Assembly (NCBI GenBank): GCA_951406725.2
Contig: OX597816.1
Span: 80,910,001 to 80,974,000 of the forward strand
Source of the DNA: Octopus vulgaris
Taxonomy: Eukaryota
Length of the DNA: 64,000 nt
Direction: 5' to 3'
Shown: in pieces, positions 32,680 through 37,670 of the stretch
Layout of the letters: each line of letters starts with the position of its first letter
Numbering within the stretch: the stretch's first letter is position 1
Made by a program: the position numbers and the translations under genes
Notes under the pieces: generated by a model
Told to the model about the DNA's origin: nothing
The model's input: the letters and a program-made list of their open reading frames with translations, nothing else
Databases searched by the model: none

Positions 32680-35574
32680 CCTTTAAAACTGTCCTCTCTC
32701 TTCATGCCTTCAAAATAAATCAGTACCCACAAATTTTTAGCACTCAACAAAACACAAATAGCATTGCTACCTCAATATTGTTATTTCTATCTACAAAGCC
32801 ATCCAAGGCTGTATCCACAGAAAGTATAAGTGACTGTTGGCATAAAACCAACACGCTCAAGGCTCCATTCCGCACACGTTTTGCATCCTTTCTGCATTTC
32901 CTATTCCTACTCTAACGCTTAATAGTTTCTGCTTGCCATCTTCAGACAGGCACTCCCGAATCACCCATTCACCCTCTCTCATCACTCATGTTGTATCCTC
33001 ATACAAATTAGTACACCTAGCCTTGCTTCCCCAACAACGCCGATTTTGGAGATGTATGTGCTTTCCATGCAGCTATCGACTTGCAACAGTTGAAGTAAAC
33101 TTTTAACATAAATAGTTTGGCCTCACAAAATCTGTGTCCCCTTAATCCAGATCCGGGAAGTCATTATTACATGTATGTGCGCTCATATTAAGGGTGTTGT
33201 TATAACGAACAGGAGTTCAAAGTATGAGGTGTATAGGAGGTAAGGAGAATAAATTATATTTATTCGGCTGACGTCTTATGCTGCTAATTGGAGTTACGGT
33301 TTCTTGTGCAGTTTATGAGAAATAGGGATCTATTAAATAAAAACTTAAAAAAAAAAAACATTTGCCCAAATTGTCATACAATGGGATCCAACCCAGGATC
33401 TCGTGAGGGCAAATCAAACAATAACATGTGTGAGTCGGTGCGCTCGCACAAACACATACACACACACAAAGAGTATAAACACACAGCTTATATATGTGTG
33501 TGTTTGAGTTCGCACATATATATTAATGTATATAAATACATAAGCACCCTCCATATATGTGTGCATGTGTATATGTACATATATGCATGCAAAGAATATG
33601 TGCATGAGGCACACTTATTTTTGCTTGTATATACGAATGTAATTTAACAGAGTGCATGTGATTATACCGAACGTACGGCATACGTTTATGTTCATATTAT
33701 TGTATATATTCACAAATACACACACACACATACACACCTCTCAGGAGCAATCATACAATTGTCTATACATCTCTTTATGTATGAAAGCGTGTTTATTTGT
33801 CATAAGATATTTTCTGCCATTTTCTATTTCAAGTGAATAAAATGCTCCCATCTGAGCTAAGCTGAGCTTTAAAATTTAGAGTGAAAGAAAATATTTGACT
33901 GAATAGCAGAAGATTAAATTTCTTCAACAGAAGATATAAGAATTAATCCAACATCGAGCAGCAGCTTTTTGATTTTCTTCAAATTCTCTATTGATTTGAT
34001 CAAATTACTCCCTCACTATCAAATCCATTCGATCTCACTGTGAAAAAAAAATTCTGCCTTTCTCCCTCTCCTTTGCCTAAAACTGAAAGTAATCCAAATT
34101 TTGATACATTTATTTTTGTAGTGCGTATTCTCGTTCCGTTTGTTAGTTTGGGGAAAAAATTTAACTATTTTATTCTATTTTATTTCATTATATTTTTATT
34201 CTATTTGTTTTACGATTTTAATTTTCACAATTTTTTTTAAAATGAAAACTGCCAAATCGTGCTTGTATCTTGGTGCCGATATTTTTTCTCCGTCTTTAAT
34301 CTAATTTTTTAAATCTGTGTTTTATGTACATTTCCTTTGATTTGTTTTTCTTAATTTTTTTTTTTCCAGTGGGGTTGAGTTTAAGTGAAATGAGTAGTGG
34401 AAAACCACTGTTCGGCAACTTAGAAAATAATTATTGTGTCTCTCCGTTTCAAATTTTCTCTTAATAAGTTCGTAAGTCCTCCGTTACAGCATAAATACAA
34501 CCGAGGGAGGAGGAGAGAAATGAAATAACAAAAATAGAAGGTAACTAGGAACGGAAAAAATGTAAAAAGGAAGAGTGAACGTAAACGAGAAAAAGAAAGA
34601 AAGGAAAGAGAAAGGAATAAAAATATATTAGAAAGAAAGAAGGAAAAAGAAAGTGAAAAAAAAAAGAGAAGAAAATGATATAGCGTAATCTTGGGCTTAT
34701 CACTGAGATTAAGCAGATATTTCTACGATGTCAGTGCAGAAAAATCTGGTGTTATAGCTTGTCATAGTATCGTTCTGATGTGAGATTTGGTAATCGAGCG
34801 AAAAATAGTTAGACTAAACAGAAGGCGAACGATGAAGGGCTAGAGGGGTGATGGTGGTGGTGGTGGAAGATGAGGAGGAGGAGGAGGAAATATAATACTG
34901 CAACAATAACGATAACATCAAAAACAATAACAGCAAACAAGAGAAAAAAGAACAGCAGGGAACAGGGGGATTCTATTAGCTGCAAGTAATAAAAGTCATT
35001 AAACTATTCCCCTCATTAAAGGTTCCGCTACCATATAATGCTATAAGACATATTTGTCCTCCACCTAAGCCTATACAATGTGACTACGATATAATTATCT
35101 TTCACTTTCGTTCCGTTCACTCTTACTTCTCCCTATATCAACTCTTTCTTTTCCCTTCTAAGTCTTTCTTTTCTTTTTAATTAATCATCTTCTCCCATCT
35201 CCCTACTCTTCCGCTTCTTTTTTCTTCTTTTACTGCCTCCGTCTTCTATCTGAAGATCACTGCTTAATATCAGTTTCCGTGAAACACCGATATACATACA
35301 CGCAAGCAGGCGCACGTGCACACTCACACACACACACACGCACAAATATAAATATATTTATATTGTACGCACGATGGTGTGTGTGTGTATAATTCATAAT
35401 CGTTCAATCTTATTTTCTAAGTACTTGGCCATGGCTTTTTCATGAACTTATTATTGCCTGGAATGTGTGTGAGTGTGTGTGTGTATGTGTGTGTGTAAGC
35501 TCGTAAGTTGATATATGTGTGTGTCTGTGTGCGTGTATCGCCATGATTGACCTCTAATTCCACAAGTTTGTTTT

Positions 35575-35744
35575 TTATTATTTTCTCTCTGTTTATTTCT
35601 TCGTGTTCCTTTCTATTGAAGAGCGTAGGCTGGAAGCGTAAAAGTCTTTCTCACCTTCCCGAGTGTCGAACTAATACACCTGCTTGTTGTTTATATACCT
35701 CTCTCCTGTCTACATCTCTGGTTTTTCTGTAAATTTCAAATATA
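35575..35744 (+). mobile_element. Degenerate second copy of the 18985-19210 repeat
   Basis: ctttctattgaagagcgtaggctggaagcgtaaaag (35609-35644) plus downstream similarity. Confidence 0.7.
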
Positions 35745-35746
35745 TA

Positions 35747-36301: not shown

Positions 36302-36754
36302 ATCAGAAATATTAAACTTCTAAATGTCTCAAAGAGACATGAGCGGTGGTGGGGCGATAGAGTGGTTGTATACTGTCACGTTAAGTTGACAGTATACAAC
36401 CACTCTATCGCTCCACCACCGCTCATGCCTCTTTGAGACATTTAGAAATTTAACATTTCTGATTACGGTAACCAGTGAATAGATTTCACTATAAATATAT
36501 ATATTTGTGAAGGCTGGACATGCACCTCAATCAGCAGATCTCACTATCCTGGGCTGATGACGGGATAAGCCCCAGAAACATGCATGTCCTGAGGTGTGAA
36601 TCTTGGCTGGTAGGGATGCTTGCCTCCCCTTCACAAATATAAGGACACAGAAAATGTGTCAAAGCCGACAAGAAGCGTTCGATGCTTCCTAGGGCTAAAC
36701 AGCGGTGGTGTAATTCCCATACGGGACTGTCACGTTAAGTTGACAGTATACAAC

Positions 36755-36758
<4 letters not shown>
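36302..36758 (+). mobile_element. Retrozyme-like / non-autonomous Penelope-like element: 354-bp unit with 33-bp terminal direct repeat and 77-bp inverted 5' extension
   Basis: 36372-36404 is identical to 36726-36758. 36302-36378 is the reverse complement of 36387-36463 (4 mismatches). Internal hammerhead. (TA)n on both sides. Confidence 0.8.
36545..36597 (+). ncRNA. Type I hammerhead ribozyme
   Basis: CUGAUGA 36554-36560, stem II GGG/CCC, GAAA 36575-36578, palindromic stem III ACAUGCAUGU, GUC triplet (predicted cleavage after 36588), stem I ccuggg/cugagg with one mismatch. Confidence 0.8.
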
Positions 36759-36790
<32 letters not shown>

Positions 36791-36822
36791 TTTATTTTAA
36801 GCAGCAGAAAATTCAACAAAAT

Positions 36823-36860
36823 CTGTTACTCTGAGTTTCTCGTTGCCGTTCATCAGACAG
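36823..36860 (-). ncRNA. Minimal type I hammerhead ribozyme (mirror copy)
   Basis: Exact reverse complement of 36885-36922. Confidence 0.72.
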
Positions 36861-36884
36861 TTTTTGCTAGAATTCTAGCAAAAA

Positions 36885-36922
36885 CTGTCTGATGAACGGC
36901 AACGAGAAACTCAGAGTAACAG
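36885..36922 (+). ncRNA. Minimal type I hammerhead ribozyme
   Basis: Stem I cugu/acag, CUGAUGA 36889-36895, stem II CG-GCAA-CG, GAAA 36906-36909, stem III ACUC-a-GAGU, GUA triplet. Confidence 0.75.
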
Positions 36923-37024
36923 ATTTTGTTGAATTTTCTGCTGCTTAAAATAAAGCATATTACTCTACCACTGGTATTTGAGTACTCTTTTTTCCACCTT
37001 GTTTCACATTTATGTGTTTACTCC

Positions 37025-37059
<35 letters not shown>

Positions 37060-37499
37060 GGCGAGCTTCTTTCAGTTTCTGTCTACCAAATCGACTCACA
37101 AGCCTTTGGTCAGCCAGAGGCTATAGTAGAAGATACGTGCCCGGAACCATGTGGTTGCTAAGCAAGCTACTTACCACACAGCCACGCCGAATATGACGGA
37201 TTTAGTTCACTTGTGATCTAATCGAATAAGCAAGCTGAGTGCTATAGTTTGTCGACCGTTAGGTTCCAAGAACACAGCTAAGGTTGGATCTAGGGATCCG
37301 TATTAGGATATATAACTCAATGTCATGAAAAGAGGATATATTGTGCTAGGCACACAGTATTGGGAGAAGATAAATAGAATAGATACGGTAGCAATGCTCG
37401 TCTGCGATCATTTGTCTCCTAGATCAGAACTAAACTGGCTCTAAACATTAACTACAACAACAGTAACATAAATTATGGAATGAAGGAATGATAAATGAT

Positions 37500-37636
37500 A
37501 ACCACATGGTTCCAGGTTCAGTCCCACTGCGTGGCACCTTGGGCAAATGTCTTCTACTATAGCCACGGGCCGACCAAAGCCTTGTACGTGGATTTGGTAG
37601 ACGGAAACTGAAAGAAGCCCGTCGTATATATATATG

Positions 37637-37670
<34 letters not shown>

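Follow-up and report, generated by a model that had tools for sequence, protein, structure and literature searches.

The window, a 64,000-nucleotide stretch of Octopus vulgaris DNA, carries at 36302–36762 what is most plausibly (probability about 0.7) a two-armed insertion of a dispersed non-coding hammerhead family, a non-LTR retrozyme, likely inserted by the enzyme of a Penelope-like element (PLE) and probably copied from a circular RNA template. Numbering of the 354-nt unit begins with u1 at window position 36372 and places the predicted ribozyme cut after u217 (36588). The right arm (36372–36762, + strand, as are the parts of the unit given below) comprises 1.1 laps of the unit and ends at the "short" (S) type of RT start, at unit positions 33–37, where a TA run blurs the end. 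The left arm (36302–36378, − strand), which the earlier note did not describe, is 77 bp long and complementary at 73 of 77 positions to 36387–36463; it runs from unit position 92 back to 16, and its outer end at 36302 is of the "long" (L) RT start type. Read from left to right, the copy is an L arm followed by an S arm; the two meet within the 7-bp stem of the u1–22 hairpin (36372–36393), inside (TA)n DNA. This hairpin lies directly 5' of the S site, and its stem would have provided the arm-joining microhomology in this copy. The 55-nt "tail" between the S and L sites (36409–36463) contains two hairpins, with the L site at the foot of the second. The (TA)n target spans 36759–36789 and a TA run also lies to the left of 36302; because TA runs flank both sides, the target duplication is unreadable here. 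The exact 33-bp direct repeat reported earlier (36372–36404 = 36726–36758) is present, but what had been taken for a terminal redundancy is merely the distance from the arm junction to the fixed S end.

The unit is non-coding and highly structured. The longest ATG ORF within 36302–36762 comprises 40 codons, in agreement with the earlier statement that no meaningful ORF exists, and the compact fold is confirmed by comparison with shuffled sequences (z = −6.4 for the linear unit and −6.2 for the circular unit, with none of 100 shuffles folding equally well in the circular form). Both long-range pairings proposed earlier are found. The strands 36500–36513 and 36628–36641 belong to a long rod (36500–36641, in which 36500–36553 pairs with 36589–36641) that bears the hammerhead. 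The 10-bp helix between 36414–36423 and 36701–36710 had been thought to join the ends of the unit; read round the unit, however, it is a local helix whose strands lie about 58 nt apart across the repeat boundary and enclose the S-site hairpin. After cleavage, the two ends of a monomer would be kept joined by the long rod around the hammerhead, and not by this helix. In two distant families the strands of the local helix are wholly replaced yet still paired.

The claimed hammerhead core (CTGATGA...GAAA...GTC, 36554–36588) is borne out. The type I ribozyme occupies 36548–36594, with a predicted cut after C36588, and consists of stem I (36548–36553/36589–36594), the core segment 36554–36560, stem II (36562–36564/36571–36573), GAAA at 36575–36578 and a stem III with a palindromic UGCA loop. 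An Rfam search with the window copy and two family copies, a check suggested by the earlier note, returned zero hammerhead matches, at the gathering thresholds and even at E ≤ 10, probably owing to the mismatch at the base of stem II. Relative to the family's commonest letters, the window copy bears three rare changes, at 36565, 36570 and 36591, which abolish the fourth stem II pair and one stem I pair. Its ribozyme is probably impaired, because the modelled active fold lies 5.6 kcal/mol above the minimum, compared with 2.7 kcal/mol in typical copies.

Covariation supports the ribozyme in the family as a whole. In 20 copies picked by hand across the subfamilies, both sides have changed in 10 of 19 hammerhead pairs (4/6 in stem I and 1/3 in stem II), a value reached by none of 500 shuffles and far above slid controls; these counts come from related rather than independent sequences and represent a few subfamily-founding events. 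The core is preserved in 142 copies, and distant members of the wider clan carry a U3–A8 swap, an already known core variant. In whole-unit alignments, covariation is densest in the rod around the ribozyme. In the consensus fold of this region, the core is paired with stem III, an off state that is predicted to lie 2.7–4.9 kcal/mol below the active fold in the four copies with all stems intact. In the larger subfamily, a U4C change, which is reported to lower hammerhead activity, is matched by an A-to-G change in the loop, whereby the off pair is kept (104 U/A, 29 C/G, 5 U/G and 4 C/A); this compensation counts as one event. A single arm elsewhere (L101:1430–2075, − strand) contains two ribozymes whose 3' halves agree and whose 5' halves differ, which suggests that the template was switched, or the sequence converted, at the cut site or close to it.

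The core, stems I–III and covariation agree with the type I hammerhead of non-LTR retrozymes, despite the lack of a match to the Rfam models, and the compact non-coding unit falls within their size range of about 150–400 nt. A close likeness exists to the retrozymes described by Cervera and de la Pena 2020 (PMC7229834), especially the 350–390-nt mussel repeats and axolotl Rtz_353, which share a highly paired non-coding unit of about 350 nt and a type I hammerhead with a short stem III and palindromic loop; the mismatch at the stem II base recurs in HHR_Amex2. According to the same paper, the similar-sized mussel and axolotl repeats make circles, with RtcB ligation in vitro, and PLEs are candidate mobilisers of retrozymes. 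Those repeats are tandem, whereas the octopus copies are mostly dispersed, 5'-truncated and two-armed. Their circles are documented at the RNA level, whereas the octopus copies described here are genomic sequences. A self-pairing block of the ribozyme, as predicted here, is attributed in PMC7229834 to plant retrozymes and some mussel circles, but not to most animal ones.

The sequence is far from single-copy: one 31-mer near the 3' end has 443 exact matches in the searched genome (2.8 Gb, 227 contigs), a first-look search yielded 2594 candidates, and the ribozyme 3' halves of two subfamilies have 73 and 419 exact matches. Rather than the tandem organisation anticipated earlier, the family is scattered over many contigs, and its copies differ by about 4–5% from the column majorities. 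Tandem states are mostly partial; arms with two ribozymes occur in L006, L101 and L258, and the window copy has one ribozyme. Contigs assembled from 4 of 24 listed runs, which are putatively RNA, also contain related sequence; they carry differing organism labels and show no start or end signal, and none of the listed sources was recorded as RNA. The start points, for which free permutation had been envisaged, are fixed at two sites, and it is the 5' ends that are scattered. Among 181 distinct insertions, a sample picked by similarity and biased to young, long copies, the 3' ends are bimodal and 55 nt apart, clustering at unit positions ~31–42 and ~86–95, with S ends at u27–42, L ends at u79–95 and three odd ends. 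Two same-strand spaced pairs turned out to be single copies split by LINEs.

In head-to-head insertions, the two ends are combined almost without exception as one S and one L. Of 84 classifiable pairs at 83 loci, 83 are S+L, one is S+S and none is L+L, an excess over independent site choice with a binomial p of ~7e-25; outside this count are 87 insertions with one classed end (some with a second arm missed by the anchor), 8 with none and 3 with an odd end. Microsatellites harbour 51 of 81 S+L insertions, and the same AT-rich word of 8–14 nt, a few letters of which overlap the element ends, is present on both flanks of 27 of the 30 two-armed insertions outside microsatellites. The arm junctions range from 24-nt overlaps to 26-nt gaps. 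The copies thus combine two fixed 3' ends with a tail, a partial tandem with an inverted 5'-truncated arm, and short duplications in AT-rich or microsatellite DNA. On anatomical grounds, this combination is best read as the signature of PLE insertion. In vitro, a PLE tail is bounded by two internal start sites, both strands are nicked and extended, the targets are AT-rich and a dimer is predicted (PMC11167929); genomic EN+ PLE copies show partial tandems, an inverted 5'-truncated copy, 8–10-bp target duplications and a tail, often at one end (PMC8557442, PMC3846280). The octopus copies share the anatomical features, namely two fixed ends bounding a tail, partial tandems, an inverted 5'-truncated arm, a tail at one end, short target duplications and AT-rich or microsatellite targets, and differ in lacking an ORF and in the length of the tail, which is 55 nt here and 30–40 bp there. 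One-end-only tails are treated qualitatively in the EN+ PLE papers, whereas they are counted here (83/84). The origin of tandem and inverted PLE insertions is still termed undefined in PMC8557442.

Several other origins fit this anatomy poorly. A DNA-level repeat, either a satellite remnant or a fold-back or MITE-type transposon with a chance hammerhead-like motif, would be compatible with the often palindromic copies, the empty Rfam search and the one tandem array found in a distant family. However, the arms are unequal and random in length, the ends are asymmetric, the 5' truncation gradient is strong, stems I and II covary, and the core is kept, including the U3–A8 swap in distant members; this alternative is largely refuted and hardly credible. 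An LTR retrozyme, with fixed LTRs, a type III hammerhead and a 4-bp duplication, was rejected in view of the type I topology, random 5' ends and 8–14-nt flank words. Classic L1 twin priming was rejected because both arms begin at fixed sites. Snap-back copying was discarded as a general explanation of the second arm, since in many pairs either arm contains sequence that its partner lacks; it may nevertheless have produced the second arm of the window copy.

The copies could also be 5'-truncated terminal-repeat stumps of an autonomous PLE, with no element of their own. PLE terminal repeats carry hammerheads and yield such stumps (PMC4209133), and the retrozymes of vertebrates are similar to these repeats (Li, Clavereau, Pollet, bioRxiv 10.64898/2026.07.22.740005). 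In octopus, however, long arms wrap from unit position 1 to 354 and not into an ORF, the longest window-copy ATG ORF is the 40-codon frame described above, and a unit of 350–368 nt is kept in several subfamilies. The retrozyme unit lacks an ORF with RT and GIY-YIG, and ORF and motif scans of the examined loci gave only unrelated neighbouring PLE fragments. We consider this origin very improbable. An autonomous partner was not found in the examined flanks, where two PLE families have no sequence in common with the unit. The first is abundant, encodes a 717-aa ORF without a Pfam match and is Hydra-like by our own reading; the second has GIY-YIG and is Neptune-like, likewise by our own reading. 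The 717-aa family (L164–L167) is very young, with an intact ORF and 12,769 first-look candidates, forms multi-kb head-to-head insertions and has no hammerhead detectable by a simple pattern. The proposal that retrozymes are non-autonomous PLE derivatives (bioRxiv 10.64898/2026.07.22.740005) agrees with our reading in invoking PLE mobilisation. Its evidence is co-occurrence and similarity to PLE terminal repeats in vertebrates, insects and coral, whereas ours is insertion anatomy; unlike in that study, a PLE terminus similar to the unit was not found in the two PLE families examined here.

A distant sister family, family F, repeats this organisation. Its unit is 358 nt, a first-look search gave 4274 candidates, and a five-way alignment of the clan has a mean column identity of 62%. 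The helix layout is that of the window family with the strands replaced, and the 3' ends, measured from the ribozyme cut site, lie at +176/+224 in family F and +174/+229 in the window family. All 8 classifiable two-armed insertions among 27 examined loci are S+L. The arms reach 886 and 816 nt (2.3–2.5 laps), and differences amount to 4.1% between laps, 4.5% between arms and 10.0% between loci. Ten units of family F form a tandem array in L384 (G000:C4:13620759–13624380), where the short 3' end is of the PLE type and the units, nearly identical, follow a higher-order pattern; the array is a dispersed insertion on its way to becoming a satellite. The conversion of a single insertion into a tandem array, seen here once, is also proposed in bioRxiv 10.64898/2026.07.22.740005. 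A two-armed copy of a further clan member lies beside a PLE (L323:10–334) and is ~72–78% like family F, which means that the clan exceeds the sampled set.

The earlier note proposed slightly more than one round of reverse transcription along a ~354-nt unit. A non-coding hammerhead retroelement and copying beyond one unit are retained, while the fixed starts and the two-armed PLE-type insertion change the rest of that account. A set of 93 arms at 58 loci, selected solely through the 3' hairpin among the first 100 of 443 matches, has a median length of 164 nt. Of these arms, 29 run past the ribozyme site and 2 stop no more than 6 nt from it; the template was therefore intact there. About 4 of the 93 reach or exceed one unit, and no pile-up of 5' ends exists at any unit position. 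The longest arms of the window family measure 642 and 618 nt (1.8 units). Non-majority letters are common to the two arms of one insertion in 93 cases, against 32 ± 7 for random pairs, and to laps in 48 cases, against 15 ± 5. These shared variants, to which gene conversion between arms could have added, indicate that both arms and all laps were copied from one template. Laps differ at 244 of 3613 sites and arms at 464 of 7609, a few spurious pairings included. Since most laps have diverged as much as the arms, they date from insertion. In L258, the laps differ at 2 of 364 sites and the arms by 6%, a pattern that marks these laps as a recent DNA-level duplication. In L044, a LINE-plus-retrozyme composite was copied on both arms; therefore, templates besides monomer circles are used. 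Like these two loci, L101 with its unlike ribozyme 5' halves speaks against a simple circle.

These data bear on whether the PLE machinery copies a circle or a line. Insertion from a linear uncleaved multimer or read-through transcript, with length gained by template jumps or DNA duplication and the ribozyme only freeing the RNA from host transcripts, is unlikely but deserves weight. In vitro, the PLE ribozyme is assisted by protein and dispensable for insertion: mutation of the ribozyme left insertion normal, and the RNA used as substrate was mainly uncleaved (PMC11167929). The composite template of L044, the lap duplications in L258 and the family F array, and the scarcity of arms of one unit or more also accord with a linear template. 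On the other hand, most laps are as diverged as the arms, end-to-end jumps would produce the 5' pile-up that is not seen, parents of more than two units are rare although arms of 2.3–2.5 laps exist, and the rod joining the cut ends covaries. Given PLE mobilisation, a circular RNA template is thus the probable one, and circles have been proposed as templates for more-than-unit copying (PMC4209133). In the circular reading, a transcript of more than one unit would be cut at successive hammerheads, and the rod would keep the cut ends adjacent for a host ligase to seal into a ~354-nt circle; the ribozyme of this circle is predicted to adopt the off fold, which is the more stable one. Two staggered nicks ~9–12 nt apart would then be introduced into AT-rich DNA by a PLE RT/endonuclease that is likely dimeric, with each nick priming at one of the two internal start sites on the same RNA. 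Both cDNAs would run the same way and stop at random, and microhomology or fill-in would link them head to head.

In several copies, a LINE that encodes endonuclease, RT and zinc-knuckle domains interrupts the sequence immediately 5' of the ribozyme; its assignment as Tx1-like is provisional. The LINE insertions carry duplications of ~17–20 bp. In several subfamilies of the retrozyme (L168, L169, L263, L128/L077), they occupy one site ~27–36 nt upstream of the hammerhead core, and at least six different subfamilies serve as targets. The approximate equivalent site in the window copy (36526–36541) is empty. For an ORF1-only LINE, whose 3' ends were picked by LINE sequence alone (30 of 31 read), 20 of 30 ends lie in the retrozyme clan (14 in the window family, 2 in a sister subfamily and 4 in distant members), 3 in a further LINE copy and 7 in other DNA; some of the junctions may be co-mobilised copies. 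For the full-length LINE, 14 of 15 lower-ranked matches lie outside the ribozyme of the window family, and the preference is therefore not exclusive. Among target-specific Tx1-clade LINEs, Tx1L inserts in Tx1D. LINEs of this kind (PMC4640811) share with the octopus element APE-RT, a zinc-knuckle ORF1, a fixed site in a multicopy repeat and a 17–20-bp duplication, whereas the octopus element inserts into retrozymes whose sequence varies across the clan, which form a hot spot rather than an exclusive target. A tentative extension, to which we assign somewhat less than even odds, is that a PLE dimer on one circular retrozyme RNA fires each start once from two nicks, and that selection maintains a ribozyme off switch in the clan, which in turn is host to the ribozyme-adjacent Tx1-like LINE as its own parasite, forming a three-tier parasite chain.

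Earlier publications cover the class of retrozymes, their link to PLEs and the tail mechanism. In the papers searched on octopus and cephalopod hammerheads, retrozymes and Penelope, neither an account of the window family nor a LINE targeting a retrozyme was found; repeat databases (Repbase, Dfam) and supplementary tables may list cephalopod examples. Apparently new, in the sense of not having been found in print, are the window family itself, the LINE hot spot and the S+L rule as counted for a non-coding element. The mover and template of animal retrozymes have so far been inferred only from co-occurrence and similarity, and the clan supplies many insertions that are short, easy to read and strictly composed of one short and one long end. 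If true, copying of a circle by a dimer would account for why all EN+ PLEs have head-to-head arms and a one-sided tail, and ribozyme-made circles would be true retrotransposition templates. The ~354-nt RNA is small enough for line, dimer and circle tests in the published PLE in vitro assay. Furthermore, compensatory change in the ribozyme of an element without an ORF argues that PLE-associated hammerheads work in vivo.

Other repeats surround the window copy. A second, unrelated palindromic element occupies the same TA run at 36785–36960 (extending to ~37026), with 88-bp arms that are 99% complementary; each arm has a minimal hammerhead-like motif, and similar copies occur in L022, L028, L089 and L157. 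At 35560–35745, a degenerate minimal hammerhead motif lies in what is, by our own reading, a probable terminal fragment of another PLE family, and L318 has a related motif downstream of its GIY-YIG ORF. Finally, 37028–37142 and 37541–37655 form an inverted pair of a common short repeat (115 nt, 84%).
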